A stretch of 64,000 nt of DNA. It comes from Ardenticatenia bacterium. Its GTDB lineage: Bacteria > Chloroflexota > Anaerolineae > 4572-78 > NAK82. Shown piece after piece: positions 15,149 through 52,817 of this stretch. Positions within the stretch are counted from its first letter, which is position 1. Each line of letters opens with the position of its first letter. The notes under the pieces are model-generated. The model was not told where the DNA came from. It was given only the letters and a program-made list of their open reading frames with translations, and did no database searches. Both the position numbers and the translations under genes were made by a program. The stretch is taken from assembly GCA_003130875.1 (NCBI GenBank), contig QEXY01000108.1:3806-67805 (forward strand). The letters are read 5' to 3'.

Positions 15149-16357
15149 TCAGCTGCGCCCGACGCTCCAGATACCATCCGGCCGGCGCAAGCTGAGCAGC
15201 AGCTCCTCCAGGTTGCGTGAGAGCGGCTCCGCACCGTGCTCGCGGATGACGTAGCCAGCTTCTAAACGCGCCCCGTGGAAGACCGGATGGCCGAACATGC
15301 TGACGTCGATGCACACTGTCAGATTCGGCTGCAACACTTCCTCGCTGTTCGGCCCGAAGAAGGGGCGCTCGAACTCGTTCAAACCCACCGTGTGCACGAA
15401 ACCCATCGTCAGGTAAGGACCATATCCCAGGCGGCTCAGAAACTCACGCGGCACGGCGTCGATCTCCTTGCCCTTCTTGCCCGGCTTCAGCGCATCGCGC
15501 GTGACCTCTAGGGCATCGGCCAGGTGGCCCAGGAAGGTCGCCTGCTCCGAGGTGGGCGGATGGTTGACCGCAAATGTGCACGCGACGCCGGCAGCGTAGC
15601 CGCGATACTTCGGGCTGAAGCCGACCAACACCAGCTCGCCCGCCTGCATCTGCTTGAAGGAAGCCGGCGGCACCACCCCGTTGAGGCGCACACCCGAGGC
15701 GACCATGCCGCGGAAGTTCCATCCATCGATGCCCAATGCGCGCATCCGTCCTTCGGCGGCGCCGATGACCGTGAACTCGGTGGTGCCCGGCCGGATGTGT
15801 GGAATGGCGGCCTTGAGCCCTTCCGCCCCCGCCTCGAAGGCGTAGCGCATCACGGCGATCTCCGCCTCGCTCTTGATGGCGCGCATCACTTCGTATTCAC
15901 GCGTCATATCGACGAATTCAACGCCCGGCAACGCCTCGTGCATCGCCACCGCCAGGCCGTGCGGCATCACGCCATAGCCCACCACGCCCAGCCGGCGCAG
16001 CGGCCTATCTCCCAATGCCTCGGCGAGAACCTCCGGCAAGGTCTGGATGACCGCGCCGGGATATTCCTCCTCCGGCACCAGGAAGACGTCGACCGCGCGC
16101 AAATTCTGGATGGCCGAGACTTCGCGCGCATACGGCGCTGCCTCCGGGCCGCCCAACAGCAGCGGCTCACCCTCCAGCGGCAGCAGCACACCTCCCGATT
16201 CGATGATGGGCCAGTAACCGGTCAGGTAACAACCGTTCGCCATGTTGAGGTCGTCGTGGTAGACGAACAAGGCGTCCACCTGCGCCGCGCGCATCAGCCG
16301 GCGCACTTTCTCGATACGTTCTGTGTATTCACTGCGTGGGATCTCGGGCGGAATCAT
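15149..16357 (-). CDS. M24-family Xaa-Pro peptidase/creatinase-like hydrolase
   Basis: Creatinase-like N-domain followed by a pita-bread C-domain (..AEIAVMRYAFE..GTTEFTV..VGFSPKYRGYAAGVACTF..). Start at ATG 16355-16357 behind GAGGAGG. Confidence 0.8.
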   Translation of the reverse strand: MIPPEIPRSEYTERIEKVRRLMRAAQVDALFVYHDDLNMANGCYLTGYWPIIESGGVLLPLEGEPLLLGGPEAAPYAREVSAIQNLRAVDVFLVPEEEYPGAVIQTLPEVLAEALGDRPLRRLGVVGYGVMPHGLAVAMHEALPGVEFVDMTREYEVMRAIKSEAEIAVMRYAFEAGAEGLKAAIPHIRPGTTEFTVIGAAEGRMRALGIDGWNFRGMVASGVRLNGVVPPASFKQMQAGELVLVGFSPKYRGYAAGVACTFAVNHPPTSEQATFLGHLADALEVTRDALKPGKKGKEIDAVPREFLSRLGYGPYLTMGFVHTVGLNEFERPFFGPNSEEVLQPNLTVCIDVSMFGHPVFHGARLEAGYVIREHGAEPLSRNLEELLLSLRRPDGIWSVGRS

Positions 16358-16423
16358 CGGGAATACCTCCTCGTTGAGCAATTGAGTGGATGGATAGGCA
16401 GAAAGGGGGTCTCCCCCCTGCGT

Positions 16424-17332
16424 CTACGGTTCGTAATGGCGCTTCCACTCCTCGCAGAAGTCGCGCAAAGTGTGGAAGCGGGCGCCGAGGCGCTTCATCT
16501 CGGTGATGAAGATGTCCAGCTCATCCAGCGCACGCTGCCCACAATTCTGCACCAGCCACGGCTTGAACTCAATGCGCGCCTCATCCGTGTCCAGCACTGT
16601 GGGCATCGGCACGAACTCCCATGGGTGGAGATACAGGCAGACCATCATCGGCTTGCCCGCCGCCCACATCCTCTCGGCATTGCGACGCACCATATCGGCC
16701 AGATGGCGGCCGCCGTGGGTACGCAATTTGGGCCAACCGTCGCGGTCGCGATGGTCGGGCAGCTCGCCCGGCACCGTCAGGTCGGCGAACAGAGGCACCT
16801 CCAGGATGCGCAGGTCACCCGGTTTGCGCCAGTCTTGGGCAGACGGATGGTAGGGCAACAGGTGCTCGCCGTGGAAATAGGCCATATAGGAAGAATCGAC
16901 CCAGTAGCCCAGCTGGTCGAGCGCCTGGATCATCTCATTGCCACCCCAGCCACGTGGCGCCCGAAACGACACCGGCCGCACGCCGGCGCGCTCCTCGATC
17001 AGCGCGGTGGCCTTCCTGAGACGGTTGAAGACCTCCTCCGGCAGCACCGGCGGGATGCCCGGCGCTTCAAAAATAGGGGTGCCAACGCTCTCGTGTTGCA
17101 ACGTGTGGCAGCCGATCTCGTGACCGGCAGCCTTCACCATCGCGAGCGACTCAGGGCCGGCCAGCGCGGCATTGCCAGTGTACAAAAACGTGGCCGGCAC
17201 CTGATGATGTGCCAGCACCTGCAAAATCGGGGCAGTGCCTTCGATCACCCCTTGGTACGTGTTGCCCCAACTGCCGATGTCGCTTTCCATGTCAAAAGAG
17301 ATGAGCACGTAGAGCGCGTGATCGGTGTTCAT
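16424..17332 (-). CDS. Polysaccharide deacetylase (CE4)-family protein
   Basis: Start at ATG 17330-17332 behind GAGGTGA (MNTDHALYVLISFDMESD...). Motifs FDME(S)D, HEIGCHTLQHE and SFRAPRGW are typical of CE4-like deacetylases. Confidence 0.75.
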   Translation of the reverse strand: MNTDHALYVLISFDMESDIGSWGNTYQGVIEGTAPILQVLAHHQVPATFLYTGNAALAGPESLAMVKAAGHEIGCHTLQHESVGTPIFEAPGIPPVLPEEVFNRLRKATALIEERAGVRPVSFRAPRGWGGNEMIQALDQLGYWVDSSYMAYFHGEHLLPYHPSAQDWRKPGDLRILEVPLFADLTVPGELPDHRDRDGWPKLRTHGGRHLADMVRRNAERMWAAGKPMMVCLYLHPWEFVPMPTVLDTDEARIEFKPWLVQNCGQRALDELDIFITEMKRLGARFHTLRDFCEEWKRHYEP

Positions 17333-17662
17333 CGTTGTCACCTCATATGCCTCCGTGGCTGAGATAAAGAGTGTCTCCATCATAGTCCGGAGCGACGAAC
17401 AGGGCAACTGAAGAGGCAAGGTGGGTGTATGGCACCACAGAGCCCGTAAAGATTTGGTCATTTTCGGCCTTACCTCCCGGAGATGTGAGGCAACCCTTGT
17501 GGTTGTTTCCCGCCGCCGAGCACGCAGAGGTCGCAGAGAACAGCAAGCAATCAAGGGAAAAAATCTGTCGGTGGTCTCGGCACTCTCTGTGGCGAGAGAA
17601 ACCCACCGTCGGCCAATGCTCTCATTCGCCCTCAAACAGCAATACCCCAGTGCATGATAGTG

Positions 17663-17691
17663 TTGACGCTCCCGAGAGAACCTGCTAAGAT
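17663..17691 (+). promoter_or_regulatory. Putative promoter of pcm
   Basis: TTGACG, 17-nt spacer, TAAGAT, about 50 nt upstream of ATG 17741. Confidence 0.4.
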
Positions 17692-17740
17692 ATCAGTGAA
17701 TAAACGGGGAATCATCTATAGAGTTTCAGGAGGCCTTTCT

Positions 17741-18496
17741 ATGCGCAAGCCTGTGCCCTGGGTGATCGCAGGGGTGCTGGTGATCGTGACGGTCATGATC
17801 TTCGTCATGCGCACGTTCCCTGCGCCGCGCTCGATCGCCCGTGAGACACCCACCATGCCGCCGGACGACCGCCGCGAAGAACGCCTGCGCATGGTGGAGC
17901 TGCAGATCCGCGCGCGCGGCATCACCGACCCGCGCGTGCTCGCCGCCATGGAAAAGGTGCCGCGCCATGCATTCGTGCCCGCCGATGTGCTCGATCAAGC
18001 TTACAACGACTATCCGCTGCCCATCGGCTACGGGCAGACCATCTCACAGCCATACATCGTGGCGGTGATGACCGAGCTGCTCAAGCTCAAGCCGGGCGAA
18101 AAGGCGCTTGAGATCGGCACCGGCTCCGGTTACCAAGCTGCCATCCTGGCCGAAATCACCGACCAGGTGTACTCTATCGAGATCATTCCCCAGCTGGCCG
18201 AGCGTGCCCGCGCCACACTTGATCGCATGGGCTACCACTACGTGGTGACCCGCCAAGGGGATGGCTACTGGGGCTGGCCGGAACATGCCCCCTTCGACGC
18301 CATCATCGTCACTGCGGCGCCCGACCACGTGCCCCAGCCCTTGTTGCAGCAGCTGGCCGACGGCGGGCGCATGGTGATCCCCGTCGGGCCACCAGGAGGG
18401 TATCAAAGCTTGTGGCTCATCACTCGCGAGGGCGACGAGTACCACAACTTCAACTGGGGCGGTGTGTCCTTCGTCCCTCTGACACGGCTGGAATAG
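17741..18496 (+). CDS. pcm: Protein-L-isoaspartate O-methyltransferase with an N-terminal TM anchor
   Basis: PRHAFVP..YNDYPLPIGYGQTISQPYIVAVMTELL..LEIGTGSGYQAAILA are PCMT hallmarks. Start at ATG 17741 behind CAGGAGG. Confidence 0.9.
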   Translation: MRKPVPWVIAGVLVIVTVMIFVMRTFPAPRSIARETPTMPPDDRREERLRMVELQIRARGITDPRVLAAMEKVPRHAFVPADVLDQAYNDYPLPIGYGQTISQPYIVAVMTELLKLKPGEKALEIGTGSGYQAAILAEITDQVYSIEIIPQLAERARATLDRMGYHYVVTRQGDGYWGWPEHAPFDAIIVTAAPDHVPQPLLQQLADGGRMVIPVGPPGGYQSLWLITREGDEYHNFNWGGVSFVPLTRLE

Positions 18497-37815: not shown

Positions 37816-39279
37816 ATGAAGAAGTGGTTCGTTACCCTGTTGGTCAGCGCGTTGGTGCTGGCGCTCTTGCCGGTGTGGGCATTTGCGGCACCGCCAGCAC
37901 AGATCCCGGAAGACAAGATTGAGGGCAAGATCTACACGCTGGAACCGCGTGAGACGCTCTCCCTGGTCGCGGCACGCGAGTTCGGCAATGTATTGGCCTT
38001 TCCAGCAATCGTGTATTTCAACAACTTTGCTGCGCGCAAGAACCCGCAGCTGACGCTGATCACCGATCCCAACGCCGTGAAACAGGGGGATGTCATTCTC
38101 ATCCCCACCGCGGATTTGGTGAAGGCGTATCTTGCGGGTGAGCGCATCGGACCGGCCAAGGGTGACGCGCCGCCCGACGATCCGTGGGGAGTGGTCACCG
38201 TCGGACCGGGCGAGCCGGTGCGCATCGGCTTTGCTGCCGCGCTGAGCGGCGCGGGCGTGGACGTGCTGGGCATTGACGAGAAGCGGGGCGCCGAGCTGGC
38301 CGTGGTCGACCGCCCCACATTGGCCGGCCATCCAGTGGAGCTGGTGGTGGAGGATGACCTGTGCTCCGGCGAAGGCGGCACCGCCGTGGCCAACAAGTTC
38401 GTAGCCGACCCCACTATCGTCGCGGTCGTCGGCAACATGTGCTCCAGCTCTTCCATCCCGGCTTCGGACATCTACGAGCGCGCCGGCTACACCATGGTTT
38501 CTCCGAGCTCGACCGCGGTGGCCTTCACTGCGCGCGGCCTGCGCTCGGCCAACCGGGTGTGCTGGAGCGATGCTATTCAGGGGCCTGCGGCAGCCAAGTT
38601 CGTATATGAGAAACTGGGCTTGCGCAAAGTGGCCACGATCCACGACGGCAGCCCCTACGGCGAAGGCTTGGTGAATGCCTTTGCGGAAGCGTTCAAGGCG
38701 ATGGGCGGTGAGGTAGTGGCTCAAGAGGCGGTCTCGGTGGGTGACACCGATATGCGCCCGGTGTTGACCAAGATCGGCGTGAACAAGCCGGAGCTGATTT
38801 ACTTCGGCGGCTTCGTGGCCGAGGGCGCCTTCCTGGCCAGTCAGCGCGCGGATGTCGGCATGGAGAACGTCATCTTCATGGGCGCCGACGGCATCAAGGC
38901 CGAAGACTTCATCAAGTCCGCCGGCGCAGCGGCGGAAGGTGTCTACGCCAGCGCAGCGGACCTGGCCACCGCTGGACCGGGTGTCAACGCCTTCCTGGCC
39001 AAGTACGAAGCCACTTACGGCGAGAAGCCACCGGCGCCCTTCCACCTGCATGCCTATGACGCGGTCAACGTGATCATGGACGCCATTTATCACTCGGCGG
39101 TGCAGGGACCGGATGGCACGCTGTGGATCGGGCGTGAGGCGCTCAACCGTGCCGTTCGTGCCACGACCGGTTATCAGGGTCTATCCGGCGTGATCACCTG
39201 CCAGCCCAACGGTGACTGCGGCACCGGCACGGTGGCTATGTCTAAAGTGGTCAACGGTCAGTGGGTGCCTGCCGAGTAG
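37816..39279 (+). CDS. Branched-chain amino-acid-type (LivJ/K family) solute-binding protein with signal peptide and N-terminal LysM-like domain
   Basis: Signal peptide MKKWFVTLLVSALVLALLPVWAFA. LysM-like YTLEPRETLSLVAAREFGN..AVKQGDVILIP. Then a type-1 periplasmic-binding fold (VRIGFAAALSGAG..VAVVGNMCSSS..VATIHDGSPYGEGL). AAGGAGGAGG lies upstream. Confidence 0.85.
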   Translation: MKKWFVTLLVSALVLALLPVWAFAAPPAQIPEDKIEGKIYTLEPRETLSLVAAREFGNVLAFPAIVYFNNFAARKNPQLTLITDPNAVKQGDVILIPTADLVKAYLAGERIGPAKGDAPPDDPWGVVTVGPGEPVRIGFAAALSGAGVDVLGIDEKRGAELAVVDRPTLAGHPVELVVEDDLCSGEGGTAVANKFVADPTIVAVVGNMCSSSSIPASDIYERAGYTMVSPSSTAVAFTARGLRSANRVCWSDAIQGPAAAKFVYEKLGLRKVATIHDGSPYGEGLVNAFAEAFKAMGGEVVAQEAVSVGDTDMRPVLTKIGVNKPELIYFGGFVAEGAFLASQRADVGMENVIFMGADGIKAEDFIKSAGAAAEGVYASAADLATAGPGVNAFLAKYEATYGEKPPAPFHLHAYDAVNVIMDAIYHSAVQGPDGTLWIGREALNRAVRATTGYQGLSGVITCQPNGDCGTGTVAMSKVVNGQWVPAE

Positions 39280-40520: not shown

Positions 40521-42188
40521 GTGAACCTGTTATCCGTCGTTCGTGCTGGTATACGCAGTGGTCTCATTGTGGGTGTGATTGCCATTTTCATCGTGCTGAT
40601 CGGCATGGTGCAGACTTTCGCGAAACGTTATCTCACCGGCGAAATCACACTCGGGATGGTGATTTTGCTGGCTTTTGGATTGGTCGCCGGCGTCCTGGCA
40701 GCGCGCCAGGTGGCCAAGAGCTCTCCCCGACTGGGGCATAAGGTGCTGGCGGCAGCGATCTCCGGTCTGATCACCGGTGTGATGCTCGCGGCATTATTGC
40801 TCGTGGTCAGCCAGGTGTCCTTGCGCGATGTGCTGGTCAACGCCACGCCCGAGATGGTGGCCGCGCTGTCCTTCGGGCTGCCCCTTTCCGGCGCCGCCGT
40901 GATGTTGATGGGCATGTCGGTGGCAACGGCGGTGATTGCCGTCCTCTACGGGCTGGTGCCACCCCGATTACGCCGTGCGCTGCTCGAGGGCATCATGGCG
41001 GTCATCTTGATCGGTCTCTTCTGGGAGGCAATCATCGGCCTGGACGTTTCGCGCCTGGTGATGAACTTCCTGGGTGTGAAGGCAGGCAAAGTGCTTCCGC
41101 TGCCAGGCGGTATCGGTCTGTTGGGCGTGGTCAGCCTGGTGACCTATCTGCTGAGGATGCGTCCACGCCCAGAGACGGCGGTCGTGCGCCAGAGGCACCG
41201 TACTGCCTGGCGCTATGTCTCCCTGGTGCTCATCGCCGGCGCTATGGCCGCGCTGCCCTTTGCTGTGGGGTTGTTCTGGTCGCAGACGTTGACCACCATC
41301 GGGCTGTTCACGCTGATGGGCCTGGGCTTGAACATCGTGGTGGGCATGGCCGGCCTGCTGGATTTGGGCTACGTCGCTTTCTACGCCATCGGTGCCTATG
41401 CAATGGCACTCTTCAGCTCACCAGCTTCTTCACTCGGTTTGGGATTGCCATTCTGGGTGGCATTGCCGATCGCGTTGGTGTTCGCCGCTATCTCCGGCAT
41501 CTTGCTCGGCATCCCCGTCCTGCGGCTGCGCGGGGACTACCTGGCCATCGTCACATTGGGATTCGGGGAGATCATCCGCGTCCTGGCACTTTCGGATGTG
41601 TTGAAGCCTTACATCGGCGGTCCACAAGGCATTATGGAGACTCCACCCCCCTATTTCTTCGGCACCCAGTTGAGCGACCCGCGCTATCTCTACTATCTCA
41701 TCCTGGCCGCGTGCCTGGTGGTAGTTTTCATCTCGCTGCGCCTCAACGATTCGCGCATCGGACGGGCATGGATCGCCGTGCGCGAAGATGAGGACGTGGC
41801 CCAGGCGATGGGCATCAATCTGGTAGCCGCCAAGTTGATGGCCTTCGCCATCGGCGCGTCCTTTGCCGGGGTGGGAGGTGCGATCTTCGCCGCACGCCAA
41901 GGCGCCATCTTCCCGATGGATTTCACCCTGTTCGTCTCTATCAACGTATTATGCCTCATCATCATCGGCGGTATGGGCAGCATCCCAGGCGTGATCACCG
42001 GCGCTTTCTTCCTGATCGGCCTGCCCGAGGTGCTGCGCGAGGTGGACGAGTATCGTATCCTGGCCTACGGCGCCGGATTGGTGATCATGATGTTGGTCCG
42101 GCCCGAAGGATTGATCCCTTCGGCACGGCGGCGTCTCGAACTGCGTGAGGAAGAAGCGGAGGAGGGAGTAGCTGATGTCGCCCGCTGA
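40521..42188 (+). CDS. livM: Branched-chain amino acid ABC permease (LivM family) with a ~240-aa polytopic N-terminal extension
   Basis: C-terminal two-thirds GLNIVVGMAGLLDLGYVAFYAIGAY..GDYLAIVTLGFGEI matches LivM. GTG start. Confidence 0.85.
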   Translation: MNLLSVVRAGIRSGLIVGVIAIFIVLIGMVQTFAKRYLTGEITLGMVILLAFGLVAGVLAARQVAKSSPRLGHKVLAAAISGLITGVMLAALLLVVSQVSLRDVLVNATPEMVAALSFGLPLSGAAVMLMGMSVATAVIAVLYGLVPPRLRRALLEGIMAVILIGLFWEAIIGLDVSRLVMNFLGVKAGKVLPLPGGIGLLGVVSLVTYLLRMRPRPETAVVRQRHRTAWRYVSLVLIAGAMAALPFAVGLFWSQTLTTIGLFTLMGLGLNIVVGMAGLLDLGYVAFYAIGAYAMALFSSPASSLGLGLPFWVALPIALVFAAISGILLGIPVLRLRGDYLAIVTLGFGEIIRVLALSDVLKPYIGGPQGIMETPPPYFFGTQLSDPRYLYYLILAACLVVVFISLRLNDSRIGRAWIAVREDEDVAQAMGINLVAAKLMAFAIGASFAGVGGAIFAARQGAIFPMDFTLFVSINVLCLIIIGGMGSIPGVITGAFFLIGLPEVLREVDEYRILAYGAGLVIMMLVRPEGLIPSARRRLELREEEAEEGVADVAR

Positions 42189-43702: not shown

Positions 43703-43836
43703 TCACGATGATCTGGCGTCAATCGATGGGGAAGGGAGGTGAGGCATTGCATCCAAACGAAAGCATGTGGCGGCACACAGCAGGTATGTGGCATGTCAGT
43801 CTCTGACAACCCGAACCGTTTTCAAGGAGGAGGCTT

Positions 43837-46602
43837 ATGAAGAAAGTCAATCTCGTGTTCCTTCTAGCATTGCTGCTGGCCGTCAGCCTGGTAGCAGTGC
43901 AGTGTCGGCAGCCGGAGTCTTTCACCATCACACCGGTCGCACCCAAGGCGACCGAGACTGAGGCCGCCAAGCCAACCGAGGCACCTACAGAGGCTGCCAA
44001 ACCGACCGAGGCAGCCACCGAGGCCGCCAAGCCGACCGAGGCAGCCACCGAGGCAGCCAAGCCGACCGAGGCAGCCACCGAGGCGCCGGTAGCACTGGAC
44101 GGCGCCACCCTCTTGCAAGAGCGCTGCACCAAGTGCCACGACCTCAAGCGTGTCGAGGCGGCGAAGAAAACGGCGGACCAGTGGAAGAGCACCGTCGAGC
44201 GCATGGTGTCTAAAGGGGCTCAGCTGAATGCGGAAGAGCAGAAGGTGCTCATCGAGTACCTGGCAGCGACCTACAAGGCAGCTGCTGCGCCCGAGGCAGC
44301 CACCGAGGCCGCCAAGCCGACCGAAGCAGCCACCGAGGCGCCGGCCAAGGTCACCAAGATCAAGGTGGGCACCAATGCCGAATATCCCCCCTTTGAATTC
44401 GTGGACGAAAGCGGCAAGATCGTCGGCTTCGACCCGGATCTGATGGCGGCAATCGCCAAGGCAGCCGGCTTCGAGGTGGAATGGGTCAACACGCGCTGGG
44501 ATGGTATCTTCGTCGCCCTGGCCAGCGGTGAGTTCGACGCGGTGATGTCGGCCGCGACGATCACCGAAGAGCGCAAGAAGACGGTGGACTTCAGCGATCC
44601 CTACTTCAACGCCGGCCAGGTGCTCTCGGTGAAAATCGGCAGCCCGTACAAGACCCCGGCCGACCTCGCCGGCAAGAAGATCGGCGTGCAGCTGGGCACC
44701 ACCGGGGACATCTGGGCCACCGAAAACACCAAAGCGGAGATCGTGCGCTATGACGAGGTCACCCTGGCCTTCCAGGCGCTCGCCAACGGCGATGTGGATG
44801 CCGTCATCGCCGATGGGCCCACATCGTTGGACATCATCAAGGCGAACCCGGAGATGAAGGTCCAGGTGGTGGGTGAACCCTTCACCGAGGAATATTATGG
44901 CATCGCCGTGAACAAGAAGAAACCCGAAGTCCTGGCTGCCATCAACGCCGGGTTGAAGGCGGTCAAGGAGTCGGGCGAGTATGACAAGATTTACGAGAAG
45001 TGGTTCGGCAAGGAGGAAGCCAAAGCGACCGCGACCGAAGCAGCCAAGGCAGCGGAAGAGGATCCATGCGCCTATGGCGGCGAGTTCAAATCCATCGAGG
45101 CGGTGGACGACCTGACGGTCAAGTTCACGCTGTGCTATCCGGACGTTGCCTTCCCTGCCAAGATCGCGTTCAGCGCCTTCAGCATCCATCCCTCGGAGCA
45201 GATGGAAGCGGAGAAGGGCGGTGGTAAGATGCTGGAGAAACCCATCGGCACCGGGCCCTATCAAATCGTCGAATGGAAACGCGGTGAGAGCATTACCTTC
45301 AAGCGCTTCGACGACTACTGGGGCGAGAAGGCCAAGACCCCCAACCTGATCTTCCGCTGGAGCACCGAGTCGGCACAGCGCACGCTGGAGCTCCAGGCTG
45401 GCACGGTGGACGGCATTGACAACCCTGGGCCAGAGGATTTCAAGACCATCGAGGCCGACCCCAACCTGAAGCTCTACCCGCGCGAGGGCTTCAACATCTT
45501 CTACATCGGCTTCAACACGGCATACCCGCCCTTCGACAACGAGAAGGTGCGCCAGGCGATCGCTATGGGCATCGACCGCAAGCGCATCGTCGAAAACTTC
45601 TATCCGGCGGTCGGCTCCGAGGTGGCGGACTACTTCATGCCGTGTTCCATGCCGGGTGGCTGCGTAGGTCCGAAGTGGTACGAGTTCAACCCCACTGAGG
45701 CAAAGAAGCTGTTGGCTGAGGCGGGCTATCCCAACGGCTTTGAGACCGAGATCGCGCTGCGCGACGTGGTGCGCTCCTACCTGCCGGAGCCCAAAGTCGT
45801 CGCCCAGGACATCCAGGCGCAGCTGAAGGAGAACCTGAACATCACCGCCAAGATCGTGGTGATGGAGTCGGGCGCCTTCCTGGATGCCGCGGACAGCGGG
45901 CAGCTCAAGGGATTGCATCTGCTCGGCTGGAACGGTGACTATCCGGATCCCACCAACTTCCTGGACTATCATTTCGGCGCCGGCGCTTCCAAGCAGTTCG
46001 GGCCCGGCTTCCCCGACATCCACGAAGTCCTGAAGCAGGCCGCTCAGATCAGCGATATGAACGAGCGCATCCAGCTCTATGCCAAGGCCAACGAGCTGCT
46101 GCGGCTGCATGTACCAATGATCCCGGTGGCGCACGGGGGTTCCGCCACAGCGTTCAAGGCCTCCGTCAAGGGCGCCCACGCCAGCCCGCTGGGCAACGAG
46201 TACTTTGCCGTGATGGAAATCCCCGGCAAGGACACCCTGGTGTGGATGCAGAACGCCGAGCCGATCAGCCTCTACTGCAACGATGAGACCGACGGCGAGT
46301 CGCTGCGCGCCTGCGAGCAAGTGCTTGAGTCGCTGTTGTCCTACGAGGTGGGCGGTATGGCAGTCCAGCCCGGCCTGGCCGAGTCGTATGAGGCGAACAA
46401 GGACCTGACCGAGTGGACGTTCAAGCTGCGCAAGGGGGTCAAGTTCCACGACGGTTCGACCCTGGATGCCAAGGACGTGATCACCTCGTTCACCGCATGG
46501 TGGGATGCAGCCAGCCCGCTGCACACCGGCAACACCGGTGCATTCACGTACTTCCAGGCACTCTTCGGTGCGTTCAAGAACGCGCCTCCAGCGACCGAGT
46601 AA
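43837..46602 (+). CDS. Secreted triple-fusion protein: CXXCH (heme-c-type) domain + family-3 (polar amino acid) SBP + family-5 (peptide/Ni) SBP
   Basis: Signal peptide, then EAAKPTEAAT linker repeats, then ERCTKCHDLKRVEAAKKTADQWKSTVERMVSKGAQLNAEEQKVLIEYL (about 44098-44277). A second linker follows, then KVGTNAEYPPFEFVDESGKIVGFDPDL..DAVMSAATITEER (about 44350-45015). Last comes a DppA/OppA-like part ..GTGPYQIVEWKRGESITFKRFDDYWG.. (about 45064-46602). This is one uninterrupted 921-codon ORF. Confidence 0.85.
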   Translation: MKKVNLVFLLALLLAVSLVAVQCRQPESFTITPVAPKATETEAAKPTEAPTEAAKPTEAATEAAKPTEAATEAAKPTEAATEAPVALDGATLLQERCTKCHDLKRVEAAKKTADQWKSTVERMVSKGAQLNAEEQKVLIEYLAATYKAAAAPEAATEAAKPTEAATEAPAKVTKIKVGTNAEYPPFEFVDESGKIVGFDPDLMAAIAKAAGFEVEWVNTRWDGIFVALASGEFDAVMSAATITEERKKTVDFSDPYFNAGQVLSVKIGSPYKTPADLAGKKIGVQLGTTGDIWATENTKAEIVRYDEVTLAFQALANGDVDAVIADGPTSLDIIKANPEMKVQVVGEPFTEEYYGIAVNKKKPEVLAAINAGLKAVKESGEYDKIYEKWFGKEEAKATATEAAKAAEEDPCAYGGEFKSIEAVDDLTVKFTLCYPDVAFPAKIAFSAFSIHPSEQMEAEKGGGKMLEKPIGTGPYQIVEWKRGESITFKRFDDYWGEKAKTPNLIFRWSTESAQRTLELQAGTVDGIDNPGPEDFKTIEADPNLKLYPREGFNIFYIGFNTAYPPFDNEKVRQAIAMGIDRKRIVENFYPAVGSEVADYFMPCSMPGGCVGPKWYEFNPTEAKKLLAEAGYPNGFETEIALRDVVRSYLPEPKVVAQDIQAQLKENLNITAKIVVMESGAFLDAADSGQLKGLHLLGWNGDYPDPTNFLDYHFGAGASKQFGPGFPDIHEVLKQAAQISDMNERIQLYAKANELLRLHVPMIPVAHGGSATAFKASVKGAHASPLGNEYFAVMEIPGKDTLVWMQNAEPISLYCNDETDGESLRACEQVLESLLSYEVGGMAVQPGLAESYEANKDLTEWTFKLRKGVKFHDGSTLDAKDVITSFTAWWDAASPLHTGNTGAFTYFQALFGAFKNAPPATE
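43951..44086 (+). repeat. In-frame 30-nt tandem repeats encoding (TEAAKPTEAA)n linkers
   Basis: gccaagccgaccgaggcagccaccgag-type units are repeated about 4 times. A shorter second block lies at about 44284-44340. Confidence 0.85.
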
Positions 46603-46807: not shown

Positions 46808-47881
46808 GTGACGCGATACGTTATCAGCCGCTTGCTTATGGCGGTGCCGGTCATCTTCGGCGTGTTGTTCATCACGTTTGCACTGGCACGGGTGATCCCA
46901 GGCGATCCGTGTCGTGCCATCCTGGGTGAGAAAGCCACCGATGCTGTATGCGAAAAGTTTATCCAAGATAAAGGACTCGACCAGCCCATCCCGGTGCAGT
47001 TTGCGATCTATCTCAAGGAAATCGCCCAGGGCGACTTCGGCATCTCCTTCCGCACCAAGCAGGCGGTCACCGAGATGATCATCGAACGCCTGCCACAGAC
47101 CATCGAGCTGACCATCGCCGCGATGATCTTCGCCAGCTTGCTGGGCATTCTCCTCGGCATGATCGCGGCCTATTGGGCCAACAGCAAGGTGGACGTGGCG
47201 GTGATGATCGGCGCCAACATCGGGGTTTCCATGCCTGTCTTCTGGCTGGGACTGATGCTAGCCTATGTTTTTGCCCTGTTGCTCAAGGACACCCCCCTCT
47301 GGCTGCCCCCCTCCGGACGATTGAGCTCCGGGATCAACGTCGCAAATCTCACCCAGTTGTGGGGGCTTGAGCCAGGACACGCGCTACATGGCTTCGTGTC
47401 GTTCATCTCCAATCTGGTGATCCTAAATGCCCTCATCACAGGCAACTGGACGGCACTGGGCGATGCGATCAAACATCTCATCCTGCCAGCGGTCGCGCTG
47501 GGCACCATCCCTATGTCCATCATCGCGCGCATGACACGCTCCAGCTTGCTCGAGGTGCTCGGCCTGGATTATATCCGCACGGCACGCGCCAAAGGCCTGC
47601 GCGAGATCTGGGTGATCTTCCGCCACGCAATGTCCAACGCGATGCTACCCGTGGTCACCGTGATCGGTCTATCGCTGGGCTCATTGCTCAGCGGAGCAGT
47701 GCTGACCGAGACGATCTTCGGCCTCTCGGGCGTGGGGCGCATTATGTACGACTCGATCACCGCGCGCGATTACGGGGTCGTCCAGGGATTTGTGGTGGTG
47801 ATCGCGCTGATTTACGTATTGGCCAACCTCGCCGTGGACCTTTCCTATGCCGTGCTGGATCCGCGCATTCGTCTGGACTAG
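46808..47881 (+). CDS. Peptide/nickel-type ABC permease (DppB/OppB family)
   Basis: MTRYVISRLLMAVPVIFGVLFITFALARVIPGDP, ..YIRTARAKGL.. and ..DLSYAVLDPRIR are family signatures. GTG start. Confidence 0.85.
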   Translation: MTRYVISRLLMAVPVIFGVLFITFALARVIPGDPCRAILGEKATDAVCEKFIQDKGLDQPIPVQFAIYLKEIAQGDFGISFRTKQAVTEMIIERLPQTIELTIAAMIFASLLGILLGMIAAYWANSKVDVAVMIGANIGVSMPVFWLGLMLAYVFALLLKDTPLWLPPSGRLSSGINVANLTQLWGLEPGHALHGFVSFISNLVILNALITGNWTALGDAIKHLILPAVALGTIPMSIIARMTRSSLLEVLGLDYIRTARAKGLREIWVIFRHAMSNAMLPVVTVIGLSLGSLLSGAVLTETIFGLSGVGRIMYDSITARDYGVVQGFVVVIALIYVLANLAVDLSYAVLDPRIRLD

Positions 47882-47900: not shown

Positions 47901-48842
47901 ATGCCACCATCTGATTTACTGACGAAAAAGCTGGATGAGATGTTGCCACGCGGCTCGAGCCTCTGGGTGGACGCTTTGCGCAATATCGTGCACCGGCGTT
48001 CGGCTATCGTGGGCGCCGCAATGCTCTTCTTCCTGATCGTCACCGCGACCTTCGCTCCCTTGATCGCCACGCACGATCCAGAGATGGTCCTGCTCGGCAT
48101 CGAAAACGTGAAACGGCGCAGCCCGCCGTGCATTCACCTGCTGGGGTGTCCACCCGATCAGCCGCAGCACCTGATGGGCGTGGACGGAAACGTGCGCGAT
48201 TTCTTCAGCCGCATGGTCTATGGCGCACGTTTGTCGTTGCAGATCGGCTTTTCAACGGTGTCCTTCGCCATCGTGGTGGGGGGCTTGCTGATCGGCGCCG
48301 TGTCCGGCTATGTGGGCGGCTGGGTGGACAACCTGCTGATGCGCATCATGGACGTCATCCTGGCCTTTCCCTACCTGTTGCTGGCGATCGCCATTGTCAC
48401 CGTGCTCGGTCCGGGATTGATCAACGCCCTTTTGGCCATCGGCATCGTCTCGATCCCGATCTATGCGCGGGTGATGCGTTCCAGCGTGCTTTCGATTAAG
48501 CAGATGGACTTTGTACTGGCGGACCGGGCGATCGGGGTGCCGCCGGCGCGTATCCTGTTCCGCCGCATCATGCCCAACGCGCTGACGCCGCTGATCGTGC
48601 AGGGGACATTGGGCATCGCCACCGCGATCCTGGATGCGGCAGCGCTCTCCTTCCTGGGACTGGGCGCCCAGCCACCGACGCCGGAATGGGGATTGATGCT
48701 GAGCGAGGAGCGCAATCAGGTGTTCACCGCGCCACACCTGGTGTTCTTTCCCGGTTTTGCCATTATGCTCACTGTGTTATCCTTCAACCTGTTAGGCGAT
48801 GGATTGCGCGATGCGCTCGACCCGCGTTTGCGCCACCGATAG
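47901..48842 (+). CDS. Peptide/nickel-type ABC permease (DppC/OppC family)
   Basis: ..LMGVDGNVRDFFSRMVYGAR.., ..MDVILAFPYLLLAIAIV.. and ..GDGLRDALDPR. Confidence 0.85.
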   Translation: MPPSDLLTKKLDEMLPRGSSLWVDALRNIVHRRSAIVGAAMLFFLIVTATFAPLIATHDPEMVLLGIENVKRRSPPCIHLLGCPPDQPQHLMGVDGNVRDFFSRMVYGARLSLQIGFSTVSFAIVVGGLLIGAVSGYVGGWVDNLLMRIMDVILAFPYLLLAIAIVTVLGPGLINALLAIGIVSIPIYARVMRSSVLSIKQMDFVLADRAIGVPPARILFRRIMPNALTPLIVQGTLGIATAILDAAALSFLGLGAQPPTPEWGLMLSEERNQVFTAPHLVFFPGFAIMLTVLSFNLLGDGLRDALDPRLRHR

Positions 48843-48960
48843 TCATCGATATGGAGGGCGCGTTTCGGTTGCGTTAGAGTGCGCTCGGCGTGCCGGTATC
48901 GGATGACGGACGATGTGCTATACTTCTGCAGGGAATGAGGAGGACAAGGGGACTGGGTCT

Positions 48961-50292
48961 ATGGAATCTGGGGAAACATCCGAATCGCTTTCCAAAGCGT
49001 TACAACCTGATTGGGCAGCGCGCCGGCGCGGGCGTATCGGACTGGCCATCCCCTGGGAACACATCCCATGGTGGGGCATCATCGTGCTCATCGTGGGTGT
49101 CATCGCCGGATTCTCCGCTCTGACGAACACGCGGTATATCGACGCGCTCTATTTCATCTTCGACTTGCCGTGGAACAAGACCGTCGTCGGACGTGGCACC
49201 GTGGATGCAAATGGGCGCTGGCAGGTGACGGTGCAACCCGGCCTGGAGCCCGGCCACTACACACTCTACGCCCAATTCAACGACCCGGAAGGCAACTTTG
49301 TAGGACGCAGCGAAGCGTATCGCATCGTGGTGCCGGAGGGAGCGTCCGCAAAGGAGACACCGCCCATCACCGCGCCAGCGCCGCAACCGCTCGAGATCGA
49401 TACTTCCACACCCACCCTGGCGGGCGAGGCCGTGGCAGGATACGAAGTGATCGTCTATGACGATTTCAGCCATAACCTGTGGCGGGTGCTGGTGCGCATC
49501 GCCACAGCGAACGGAGTGTTGTTGACCATTCGCACGACGTTGCTAGCCTACGGGGGTGCCCTGATACTAGGCCTGATCTTCGGCGTGATGCGCGTCTCCA
49601 GCCGCTCGCCCAATCTGATCGATCACGCTGGCAGACGGGTGGCCATCGGGCTGGCCCTGGCACTCGTTGTGCTGGCCCTGGTGCCTGCCGCGCGGGTACT
49701 CCCGTTAGCCGGCATAGTGGTGCTGGGAGGACCGATTTTGTTGTTTCTGCTGCCGGCGCTGCCCTATACTATCTCCACACTCTACGTCGAGGTGGTGCGC
49801 GGCGTGCCCATGCTGGTCATCATCCTGTATATGGGCTTCGCGGTGACCCCGGCATTGCGCGAGAGCACCGACAACCTGGTGGATTTGCGCGGCTGGCCCT
49901 CCGCGCTGATCGGCCTGGCCTTCGGCTATGGTGCTTACCTGGCGGAGGTGTTCCGCGCCGGCATCCAATCTATCCCACGCGGACAGATGGAAGCGGCGCG
50001 CTCCCTGGGAATGAGCTATATGCAGGCCATGCGCTACATCATCCTGCCGCAGGCGGTGCGCGTGGTACTCCCGCCGCTGGGCAATGACTTCATCTCGATG
50101 CTCAAGGACTCGTCGCTGATCTCCGTCATCGCATTGCCCGAGGTGTTACAACAGGGCCGCTTGTGGATCTCGCGCAACTTTCGCGCTTTTGAGGGCTTCA
50201 ATTCGGTGGTGATGGTCTATCTGGTGATGACTCTGCTGCTTTCGCTGATGGTGCGCACCGTGGAGCGCAAGACCAGCCTGCCAGGCCGATGA
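48961..50292 (+). CDS. Polar amino acid ABC permease (HisM/GlnP family) with N-terminal TM segment and extracytoplasmic Ig-like domain
   Basis: C-terminal half ..[48 protein letters not shown].. N-terminal region [31 protein letters not shown] is Ig-like. The start is uncertain (ATG 48961 or 48913). Confidence 0.75.
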
Positions 50293-50371
50293 ATCGCTCT
50301 TCAAGCGATGGGAGATGAACAGAGGACGTGTTAAGGAAGCGTTTGAGGAAGGAGGAGGAAAGAACGGGGCG

Positions 50372-51112
50372 ATGACTTCACGTCAGCCGGTGATCATCCT
50401 GGAGAATGTGCACAAGCGTTTCGGCAAGGTGCACGCGCTACGCGGGGTGAGCCTGGAAGTGGCATTGGGCGAAGTGGTGGTTGTGATCGGACCCAGCGGT
50501 TCCGGCAAGTCCACCATGCTGCGCTGCATCAACCATCTGGAGACGATCGACAGCGGGCGCATCATTGTGGACGGCATCCCGCTCGACAAAGCCCAAAACA
50601 TCAATAAGGTACGGGCCGAGGTAGGGATGGTCTTCCAACTCTTCAACCTCTTTCCCCATCTCACCGCATTGGAGAACATCACTCTGGCCCAACGCGTGGT
50701 ACGCAAGCGCAGCGAGGAACAAGCTGTGGCCATTGCGCTCGAACTGCTCAAGAAGGTGGGGATTCCCGACAAAGCGGACAGCTACCCGCACCAGCTCTCC
50801 GGTGGCCAACAACAGCGCGTGGCAATCGCACGTGCGTTGGCCATGCAGCCTAAGATTATGTTGTTCGACGAACCGACCTCGGCGTTAGACCCGGAGATGA
50901 TCAAAGAGGTGCTGGATGTAATGCTCGACCTGGCGCGCGAAGGAATGACGATGGTTGTGGTCTCGCACGAAATGGGCTTCGCCCGCGCGGCTGCGACCCG
51001 GATGATCTTCATGGACGAGGGGCAGATCATCGAGCAGGGCACTCCCGATGAGATTTATTACAACCCCCAGCACGAACGGACCAAGCTGTTCCTGAGCAAG
51101 GTGCTGCACTAG
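50372..51112 (+). CDS. Polar amino acid ABC ATPase (GlnQ/HisP family)
   Basis: [48 protein letters not shown] 50372 behind GGAGGAGG. Confidence 0.9.
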
Positions 51113-51122
51113 TAGAAACCCT

Positions 51123-51938
51123 ATGGCACTTATCTACTGCGTCGCCAACCAGAAAGGGGGTGTCGGCAAGACGACCACGGTCGTCAATGTGGGCGACTAT
51201 CTGACCATGCGCGGGCACAACGTGCTGGTGGTCGATGTCGACCCCCAGGCAAACGCGACTTCCAGCTTAGGGATGCGCGAGAAAGAAAGAAGCGCATCCG
51301 CCCATCCCGCGCCCACCATCTACGAGGTGCTCGTCAGCGAGCAGCCTATCGGACAGGCCATCCGGACGACACGGCGACCGCGCCTGCACGTTGTGCCGTC
51401 CACCCCGGCACTGGCCGGCGCCGAGGTGGAGCTGGTGGGACTGACAGGGCGGGAGACACGCCTGCGCAGGGCACTCACCTCTATCCTGCAATACTATGAC
51501 TATGTGTTGATCGACACACCTCCCAGCTTGGGTCTGTTGACCATCAACGCCTTGACAGCCAGCCGTGACGGGGTGATCATCCCGGTGCAATGCGAATACC
51601 TGGCGCTGGAAGGGCTGAGCCATCTCTTGCACACCATCGACCTGGTGCGCCAGCGGCTCAATCCGCAGCTCAAGATCGCCGGTGTCGTGCTGACGATGTA
51701 TGATGGACGCACCCGTCTGTCTCAGGAGGTGGTCCAGGAGGTGAAAAAGTTCTTCCGGGCAGGAGAGGTGTTCCAGACGATTGTGCCGCGCAATGTGCGC
51801 CTGAGCGAAGCGCCCAGCTTTGGCGAAACGATCTTCACCTATTCGCCCGAATCAACCGGCGCCATGGCATATGCCGCCCTGGCCGAGGAATTGCTGGCAC
51901 GCGCCAAACAACCGGTTCGCGAGCGAGGAGTACGATAG
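51123..51938 (+). CDS. parA: Chromosome partitioning ATPase ParA/Soj
   Basis: VANQKGGVGKTTTVVNVG deviant Walker A, DPQANATS, and the position directly upstream of parB. Confidence 0.9.
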   Translation: MALIYCVANQKGGVGKTTTVVNVGDYLTMRGHNVLVVDVDPQANATSSLGMREKERSASAHPAPTIYEVLVSEQPIGQAIRTTRRPRLHVVPSTPALAGAEVELVGLTGRETRLRRALTSILQYYDYVLIDTPPSLGLLTINALTASRDGVIIPVQCEYLALEGLSHLLHTIDLVRQRLNPQLKIAGVVLTMYDGRTRLSQEVVQEVKKFFRAGEVFQTIVPRNVRLSEAPSFGETIFTYSPESTGAMAYAALAEELLARAKQPVRERGVR

Positions 51939-51944
51939 GGGAGC

Positions 51945-52817
51945 ATGAGCAAGCCACGCAGTGTGTTAGGACGTGGATTGGAAGCGCTCATCGCCAGCAG
52001 TGAGCCCTCCTCCGCAGCACGCAGCGCCGCGGTCGTCGACATCCCGCTGGACCAGTTGCAGCCCAACCCGATGCAGCCGCGCCACGACATGCGCCCAGAG
52101 GAGCTGGAAGAGCTGGCGGCTTCCATCCGCGCCCACGGGGTGATCCAGCCGCTGGTTGTGACCAGAACCGATCAAGGGTATCAGATCATCACCGGCGAAC
52201 GCCGCTGGCGTGCGGCACAGCTGGCTGGGTTGGAGAGCGTCCCGGCCATCATCAAGGAGACCACACCGCGCGAAATGCTTGAGCTGGCGCTGGTGGAGAA
52301 CATCCAGCGCGCTGACCTGAACCCGCTGGAGGAAGCCAGCGCCTATCAGCAATTGATGGACGAATTTGGGCTGACGCAAGAGGAAGTGGCGGTCCAGGTG
52401 GGCAAGAGCCGGGTGGCGGTGGCCAACACCGTGCGTCTGCTCAAACTGCCGGACGAGGTCAAAGAGGCGCTGACGGCCGGCGCGATCAGCGCAGGGCACG
52501 CGCGTGCCCTGCTGGCCCTGCCCACAGTGGAACAGCAACTCCGCGCGCTGGAGGCCATCCGTCGCGGCGGTCTGACGGTGCGCCAGACCGAAGCGCTGGT
52601 GCGCGCCCTACAGGCACAGCCGGATGAGGAGGCGACTGCATCCGGCGAACGGCACCTTTCTCCGCAGGACCGTTACGTGGTAGAACGTTTCGAAGGACGC
52701 CTAGGCACCCGGGTGGAGCTGGTGCGCAGCAAGCGAGGCGGACGCCTGGTGATCCACTTCTACTCCGATGAGGAGCTTCAGGCGATCTACCAGGCCGTGG
52801 TGGGAGAGACGATGTGA
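51945..52817 (+). CDS. parB: Chromosome partitioning protein ParB/Spo0J
   Basis: LGRGLEALI, LQPNPMQPR, GVIQPLVV, GERRWRAAQLAGL. Confidence 0.9.
   Translation: MSKPRSVLGRGLEALIASSEPSSAARSAAVVDIPLDQLQPNPMQPRHDMRPEELEELAASIRAHGVIQPLVVTRTDQGYQIITGERRWRAAQLAGLESVPAIIKETTPREMLELALVENIQRADLNPLEEASAYQQLMDEFGLTQEEVAVQVGKSRVAVANTVRLLKLPDEVKEALTAGAISAGHARALLALPTVEQQLRALEAIRRGGLTVRQTEALVRALQAQPDEEATASGERHLSPQDRYVVERFEGRLGTRVELVRSKRGGRLVIHFYSDEELQAIYQAVVGETM

Follow-up and report, generated by a model that had tools for sequence, protein, structure and literature searches.

A circularly permuted DppA-type domain at the end of a two-receptor string with a probable c-type haem module in a Chloroflexota bacterium

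What could a single secreted polypeptide do with a small cytochrome and two nutrient receptors of different classes, and does its haem have anything to do with uptake? The question is raised by an open reading frame (ORF) at 43837..46602 (+) of a 64,000-nt stretch of the Ardenticatenia bacterium assembly GCA_003130875.1 (contig QEXY01000108.1), hereafter the window, which encodes 921 amino acids (aa) without interruption. The initial annotation had read it as one ORF with a signal peptide, TEAAKPTEAA linkers, a CTKCH module, a family-3 solute-binding domain (SBP3) and a family-5 solute-binding domain (SBP5). This layout was borne out by Pfam, which placed three domains in the order PF09098, SBP_bac_3 and SBP_bac_5, and by Tandem Repeats Finder (TRF). 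The two junctions that it had singled out (44280-44350 and 45015-45065) coincide with linker 2 (aa 148-170) and linker 3 (aa 392-409). We found that the family-5 domain is complete but circularly permuted, with the ~120 residues that open canonical DppA lying at its C-terminus. The two-binder string is common in Chloroflexota, and the haem bead is a genus-level oddity. The combination seen in the window varies on kinds already known and does not make up a new type of system.

The permutation was evident from several comparisons. SBP_bac_5 (PF00496) matched from aa 400 onwards with 301 bits against a cut-off of 32.4, in two stretches. In alignments to solved structures, aa 419-793 correspond to residues 126-504 of mature E. 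coli DppA, and aa 800-909 align to residues 30-146 of the DppA precursor. In a fragment starting at aa 392, residues 28-402 and 409-518 are the two DppA-aligned segments, their order reversed, and the canonical C-terminus is joined straight to the canonical N-terminus (…FAVMEIPGKD/TLVWMQNAEP…). Among the NCBIfam models, positions 153-533 of the DppA profile match aa 418-794, and a different family-5 model matches aa 828-887 with its N-terminal part. Sequence matches in the PDB included 3m8u (E 5e-71) and 1dpe (E 5e-67). The AlphaFold2 (AF2) model of aa 392-921 had a predicted local distance difference test score (pLDDT) of 88.2 and a predicted template-modelling score (pTM) of 0.86, and the relocated segment (part B in Table 1) reached a pLDDT of 91-98 over most of its length. 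With this model, Foldseek returned 5f1q, 3m8u and 1dpp at probability 1.00, DppA and GbpA being the best, with 29-35% identity. The alignment covered ~395 of 530 columns only, as expected of a sequential aligner on a permuted chain. The canonical N-to-C order of segments is absent and, given the reversal, we regard the domain (cpSBP5, for circularly permuted SBP5) as a variant of family 5 (cluster C) rather than a standard member. A family-5 domain in permuted order was not found among the solved structures of the PDB copy searched. The "complete DppA/OppA-like fold" of the initial annotation was thus right as to completeness and wrong as to order, the PDB alignments revealing a circular permutation that had been overlooked.

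All segments of the fold common to DppA (E. coli, Yersinia) and Haemophilus GbpA/HbpA (cluster C, PF00496; 1DPP, 1DPE, 5F1Q, 3M8U, 8Z1Y) are present in cpSBP5. The likeness extends to the position of the gene directly before dppB-dppC and to the equivalents of DppA R355, Y357 and D408, which align to R646, Y648 and D701 and are invariant in 46 family members. In the published DppA structures, Arg355, Tyr357 and Asp408 anchor the free carboxylate and amine of the ligand. cpSBP5 differs from DppA and GbpA in its permutation, its N-terminal fusions, its conserved cysteine pairs and an operon without dppDF. C411/C433 and C826 are invariant and C814 is nearly so. The name "heme-binding protein A" of the closest PDB entries had suggested haem scavenging. 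We rejected this reading because the 3m8u entry describes its protein as glutathione-binding protein A, and because haem bound covalently to CXXCH is no transport ligand.

The permuted order is widespread. A 190-aa probe spanning the junction gave an unbroken match in about 57 of 401 Chloroflexota species genomes, belonging to more than 10 families; canonical family-5 paralogs matched its second half only. A scan of species genomes yielded at least 594 cpSBP5 loci, among them those of the cultured Bellilinea caldifistulae GOMI-1, a Caldilinea aerophila metagenome-assembled genome (MAG), Brevefilum fermentans and one Acidimicrobiia MAG. The genome of the window holds one permuted and seven canonical family-5 genes. 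The same permuted order recurred in a stand-alone protein (P0104, 585 aa), in PBP6-cpSBP5 (P0096), in PBP6-SBP3-cpSBP5 (P0012, 1183 aa), in SBP8-SBP3-cpSBP5 (P0119, 1264 aa) and in a tandem of two complete permuted family-5 domains on one polypeptide (P0006, on an ENA contig, 1098 aa). These findings define cpSBP5 as a large Chloroflexota family with an old, family-wide permutation, not a one-off accident. Whatever the haem does, it holds that the permuted fold is the common C-terminal unit of strings with up to three binding-protein classes in this phylum. We also compared how often permuted and canonical family-5 domains are likely to carry N-terminal fusions. Open frames exceeding ~680 aa numbered about 7 among 57 permuted hits and about 9 among ~146 canonical ones, but stop-to-stop length is too coarse a measure for this purpose.

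The initial annotation had also called the architecture undescribed. This stood as far as the literature searched is concerned, which was thin on subscription journals: no publication came to light that describes naturally permuted family-5 binders, a Chloroflexota fusion of binding proteins from different classes, or a binding protein bearing a cytochrome c module. It did not stand for the databases, in which Chloroflexota entries with SBP3 and SBP5 fused are abundant under generic names. The tandem protein P0006 is the kind of duplicated intermediate that is able to give rise to a permutation.

Table 1. Positions in the window of the parts of the fused gene and of the transporter genes that follow it.
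Feature	Position	Strand	Basis or remark
Ribosome-binding site AAGGAGGAGG	43824..43833	+	3 nt before the ATG, strong; read directly from the sequence
Sec signal peptide ending at Cys23 (LVAVQ/C)	43837..43905	+	From the translation
Linker 1, Thr/Glu/Ala/Pro/Lys-rich, (TEAAKPTEAA)n	43906..44094	+	TRF repeat
57-nt direct repeat to the left of the haem module	44033..44089	+	95% identical to the right copy
Putative monohaem c-type cytochrome module, aa 87-147	44095..44277	+	PF09098, 1jju homology
Right copy of the 57-nt direct repeat, within linker 2 (aa 148-170)	44288..44344	+	95% identical to the left copy
Family-3 polar-amino-acid-binding domain, aa 171-391	44347..45009	+	PF00497
Linker 3, aa 392-409, KEEAKATATEAAKAAEED	45010..45063	+	pLDDT <50 for model residues 1-17 (AF2 model of aa 392-921)
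cpSBP5 part A, aa 410-799 (canonical DppA ~120-507); anchors R646, Y648, D701	45064..46233	+	Alignments to 1dpe, 1dpp, 3m8u, 8z1y
cpSBP5 part B, aa 800-921 plus stop (N-terminal ~120 residues of canonical DppA)	46234..46602	+	Alignment to the DppA precursor
dppB-like permease gene	46808-47881	+	Pfam BPD_transp_1, with BPD_transp_1_N and OppC_N over the dppB-dppC pair
dppC-like permease gene	47901-48842	+	Pfam, as for the dppB-like gene
GlnP-type permease with N-terminal Ig-like ectodomain	48913-50292	+	Pfam; putative partner of the SBP3 module
GlnQ-type ATPase	50315-51112	+	Pfam; putative partner of the SBP3 module

Given two binders on one chain, we compared the fused modules with the transporters encoded around them. 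The genes of the window run in the order livK-like, livH, livM, livG, livF, fused gene, dppB-like, dppC-like, GlnP-type, GlnQ-type, parA and parB. Orthologs of dppB-dppC (52-80% identity) follow cpSBP5 in 22 of the 23 relatives' loci; in locus L001 a stand-alone cpSBP5 has no adjoining dppBC. SBP_bac_3 (PF00497) matched aa 175-392 with 156 bits over profile positions 1-132 of 132, and a GlnP-type permease and a GlnQ-type ATPase are encoded nearby. glnP(-glnQ) comes after dppBC in all four SBP3-fused loci (the window, L005, L023 and L004), and no glnP lies downstream in the 18 loci where cpSBP5 stands alone or is fused to PBP6 only. In L001, a separate SBP3-glnP-glnQ operon lies nearby. P0012 and P0119 have further binders at the N-terminus, and these correspond to the transporters encoded just upstream, of the liv type or two sugar-type permeases. 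The fused modules thus mirror their neighbouring transporters, and this is the main support for one tether carrying several receptors. The proposal of a tethered dual receptor feeding two permease systems, made from the letters of this stretch, gained weight in the same way, since dppBC stands directly downstream, the GlnP/GlnQ-type genes come next and the SBP3 fusion tracks glnP. DppBC and the GlnP/GlnQ-type transporter are the likely partners of the respective modules.

The solved chains closest to the SBP3 module are AncQR 4zv1 (E 7.5e-63), the Lactococcus GlnPQ binding domain 6h30 and ArtJ 2pvu, and the match to the family of ArtJ (2PVU), GlnH (1GGG/1WDN), AncQR (4ZV1) and the L. lactis GlnP binding domains (6H30) is full-length. 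As in Lactococcus GlnPQ, the binder is covalently tethered and not free, and a GlnP/GlnQ-type transporter is encoded in the operon. It differs in its fusion partners, which are a binder of another structural class and an N-terminus of the lipid-anchor type rather than its own permease. The GlnP-type permease of the window is the only such match in the genome at E<=1e-15, and the genome has one other SBP3 match, on the small contig C142. At its N-terminus the same permease is extended by ~200 aa, which gave weak Ig-like matches (Big_13 and Big_6, below cut-off). In L004, the frame holding the GlnP-like segment (16165-18447) has a WD40 beta-propeller in place of the Ig-like ectodomain, and the ectodomain before the permease therefore varies among relatives.

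The ATPases of the peptide permease are not encoded with it. dppD-dppF follow dppBC in more distant families, several of which have complete dppBCDF operons, and are absent in the class to which the window belongs. In the genome of the window we counted nine dppBC pairs versus four dppDF pairs; dppB and dppC adjoin in the operon, and the dppDF pairs lie at four other places (contigs C18, C59, C123 and C168). These numbers make sharing of ATPases among the peptide permeases plausible. On C18, the dppDF pair stands between two family-5 binder genes.

We next turn to the module at the N-terminus. Its identification as a small haem domain of the type found in quinohemoprotein amine dehydrogenase (QHNDH), suggested at the outset, was supported by homology. 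Dehyd-heme_bind (PF09098) matched aa 89-149 with 28.6 bits (cut-off 25.2) over profile positions 3-70 of 167, and residues 3-66 of 1jju (QHNDH alpha), the first half of the dihaem domain, matched the module with an E of 1.8e-8. A single CTKCH motif lies at aa 97-101 (C97, C100, H101; 44125-44139), and W116 and a putative distal Met123 complete the signature, which was conserved over 326 family instances (C 98%, C 98%, H 99%, W 96%, M 98%). The genome encodes cytochrome c maturation proteins (ResB and a CcsA-like protein on contig C94, CcmF/CcmC-like proteins on C112), and the protein has a Sec-type signal peptide, so that both the export and the maturation that a c-type cytochrome needs are provided for. 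Both CXXCH and a candidate distal Met are at hand, and the module is probably a c-type haem domain with His/Met ligation and a covalently attached haem.

Comparison with QHNDH alpha (PF09098; 1JJU, 1PBY, 1JMX) shows homology to one haem-binding half, including the CXXCH, the Trp and an Arg-Met motif. The module of the window is a single ~60-aa unit, whereas QHNDH has a 167-aa dihaem domain, beta-barrel domains on the same alpha subunit, and beta and gamma subunits with a CTQ cofactor. Only half of the haem domain is present, the remainder of the protein consists of binding-protein domains, and dehydrogenase domains and partner subunits are lacking; the protein is therefore not a QHNDH. An exhaustive profile search for the module found 3209 cluster representatives at E<=1e-3. 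Most family members either combine one module with a Pro/Ala linker and a signal or lipobox in 95-150 aa, or are tandem arrays of 2-8 modules. The module also occurs on cytochrome P460, on an ethylbenzene-dehydrogenase-like domain and on the ectodomain of a Ser/Thr kinase. By layout alone, the protein can be likened to PgcA of Geobacter sulfurreducens, a lipobox protein described as a "haem-tethered redox string", in which small monohaem domains are carried on low-complexity Pro/Thr-type linkers (PMC10570954). Both have haem beads on linkers, and the present module forms 2-8-copy arrays in other proteins. The protein of the window differs in having one haem bead followed by two nutrient-binding domains, which is not described for PgcA. 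One free-standing relative (P0167, 98 aa, 70% identical to the module) has CGTHH in place of CXXCH and may attach haem by one thioether bond or not at all.

Within the genome the module is a single copy. The other cytochromes comprise 10-haem and 8-haem proteins, an NrfH-like tetrahaem/trihaem pair and a cytochrome b/dihaem-c fusion (contigs C19, C172, C109, C8 and C71), and a haem-copper oxidase (PF00115) was not found in the genome. This set suggests anaerobic respiration or extracellular electron transfer.

The distribution of the haem module was much narrower than that of cpSBP5. In a word-based search of limited reach, close orthologs were the only binding proteins seen to carry it, and the fusion was found in this genus only. 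The six species genomes of the genus all carry the module, in a 925-980-aa frame and in one case in two copies; in other genera of the family it sits in 122-172-aa frames or is absent. Between species, its ratio of nonsynonymous to synonymous divergence (dN/dS) was 0.01-0.13, with dS up to ~1.9, which shows that the module is under strong purifying selection. P0002, a 90% identical and fully syntenic ortholog, has linker only at the position of the module, and P0001 has two modules. Together with the flanking 57-nt repeats, this pattern fits gain, loss and duplication by recombination in the linker repeats. No haem module was found near cpSBP5 in the 23 sampled relatives' loci. A 118-aa ORF upstream in L001 was considered as the source cytochrome of the fusion and rejected, as it encodes a membrane protein.

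At the N-terminus, the signal ends in A-V-Q-C23, to be compared with the lipobox [LVI][ASTVI][GAS]C. A Cys directly after the hydrophobic region recurs among relatives in AAQC, LVSC and VTAC variants, and Lgt is encoded in the genome. The end of the signal peptide is probably a non-canonical lipobox at which the protein would be lipidated. In the linker that follows, TRF found a 30-nt period in 4.2 copies (43960-44084), encoding (TEAAKPTEAA)n.

Taken together, we favour, with reasonable though not high confidence, the following explanation. The protein would be a Sec-exported and probably lipid-anchored string of three modules, of which the two binders serve two importers and the haem bead works independently of transport. 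Low-complexity TEAAKP-type linkers would join independently folding modules as "beads-on-a-string". The SBP3 module may pass a polar amino acid to the GlnP/GlnQ-type transporter encoded three genes downstream, and cpSBP5, with its DppA-type Arg/Tyr/Asp anchors, may pass a dipeptide-like ligand to the DppBC encoded immediately downstream, for which other parts of the genome would supply DppDF-type ATPases. The haem module comes from a family whose members are normally free-standing lipoproteins of ~100 aa. As a probable monohaem cytochrome of ~60 aa it would transfer electrons while tethered to the shared anchor, and would function apart from transport. The domain identities, the permutation and how widely it occurs, the gene neighbourhoods, the selection acting on the haem module and the existence of maturation genes are shown by the data, whereas lipidation, attachment of haem, the ligands, the permease that each binder serves and the independence of the haem module are inferred. 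As for history, the simplest origin of the permutation would be a tandem duplication of dppA followed by loss of both ends. The SBP3 fusion may be a later, lineage-specific join of neighbouring receptor genes, and the haem module the latest addition, inserted into the linker between repeats of linker-coding sequence and fixed in one genus.

Several observations weigh against this explanation. The lipobox is non-canonical, with Gln at position -1. The operon has no DppDF, and the reliance of DppBC on ATPases encoded elsewhere is our assumption. Foldseek gave no match at E<=0.001 for the AF2 model of the haem module, an apo model built from four sequences that is uninformative (best pLDDT 82.7, other models 56-68). 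The module is the sole copy in a genome with multihaem cytochromes and no haem-copper oxidase, and its redox partners are not evident. Finally, all species of the genus have kept the module specifically on this protein, which could point to a functional link with transport.

That last point, with the strong purifying selection on the module, leads to the reading raised by the initial annotation, that the protein is a redox-sensing or redox-gated receptor. Here the haem would sense extracytoplasmic redox conditions and alter the ligand binding, docking or uptake of the attached binders, perhaps through the cysteine pairs of cpSBP5 (C411/C433, C826, C814), whose conservation would be in keeping with such a role, as would the presence of the module on a Ser/Thr kinase ectodomain, a sensory-looking setting. 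The reading found no support in our analysis and we consider it unlikely: flexible low-complexity linkers separate the module from the binders, the 90% identical ortholog in the same neighbourhood does without it, as do hundreds of SBP3-cpSBP5 proteins, and most of its family are free-standing small cytochromes or tandem haem arrays. The conserved His/Met-type signature also speaks for an electron carrier, for in class I cytochromes c this ligation is typical of electron carriers rather than of gas or redox sensors. A wider form of the idea, in which the redox state tunes binding or docking, perhaps via the cysteine pairs, so that amino-acid and peptide uptake follows the state of the extracytoplasmic electron-transfer chain, is slightly less likely again. 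If the haem did couple redox state to uptake, this would be a new regulatory principle.

We also asked whether the binders serve transport at all. Binding-protein domains are known as sensors in other systems, and the modules could signal to a kinase or chemoreceptor, or form an adhesion or scavenging scaffold that retains nutrients at the cell surface, with the permeases using other binders. The lack of DppDF in the operon and the L001 cpSBP5 without adjoining dppBC would agree with this. Yet cpSBP5-dppB-dppC is kept in nearly all relatives' loci, complete dppBCDF operons occur in several families, Pfam found no kinase or chemoreceptor gene in the operon, and other binders for the permeases are scarce: a genome search found no other family-5 gene near the dppBC of the window, and the only other SBP3 match is the one on C142. 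We therefore regard a sensor or scaffold role as improbable. The least probable reading is an assembly chimera, in which a wrong join at the EAAKPT-coding repeats produced the ORF, so that one of the binders or the haem module belongs somewhere else. The genome is indeed a MAG of 195 contigs, the haem module is flanked by 95% identical 57-nt repeats and linker 1 is a 30-nt tandem array, but the repeats are shorter than ordinary reads, and dozens of assemblies contain an SBP3-cpSBP5 protein that lacks the haem module. Independent JGI, NCBI and Logan assemblies all show the haem-SBP3-cpSBP5 order, and so do all five other species genomes of the genus, for which synonymous divergence reaches a dS of ~1.9. 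Independent assemblies that have diverged to this extent make a chimera very unlikely.

The preferred reading, two receptors and a cytochrome on one anchor, bears on several questions. Binding proteins of ATP-binding cassette (ABC) importers serve as a model of ligand capture and of docking. Hundreds of Chloroflexota species have as their standard form a natural permutant of the DppA/OppA fold, which offers a ready-made test of the effect of chain connectivity on hinge motion and on docking. The receptor strings, with one anchor and up to three binder classes, each matching a transporter encoded nearby, show how organisms without a confined periplasm may organise their receptors. The haem bead illustrates how repeated linker-coding DNA may let a small cytochrome enter a linker, where selection then retains it.

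Some neighbouring genes had unusual features. The LivK-type protein (37816-39279; Peripla_BP_6) has a ~130-aa N-terminal extension, its Pfam match beginning at aa 134, and a domain 75% identical to it is fused ahead of SBP3-cpSBP5 in P0012. The LivM-type permease (40521-42188; 555 aa) has a Pfam match only from aa 255, preceded by a long hydrophobic N-terminal extension. parA and parB (51123-52817) stand directly after the ABC ATPase, and the liv, SBP, dpp, gln and parAB order is kept in L005, L038 and L039.

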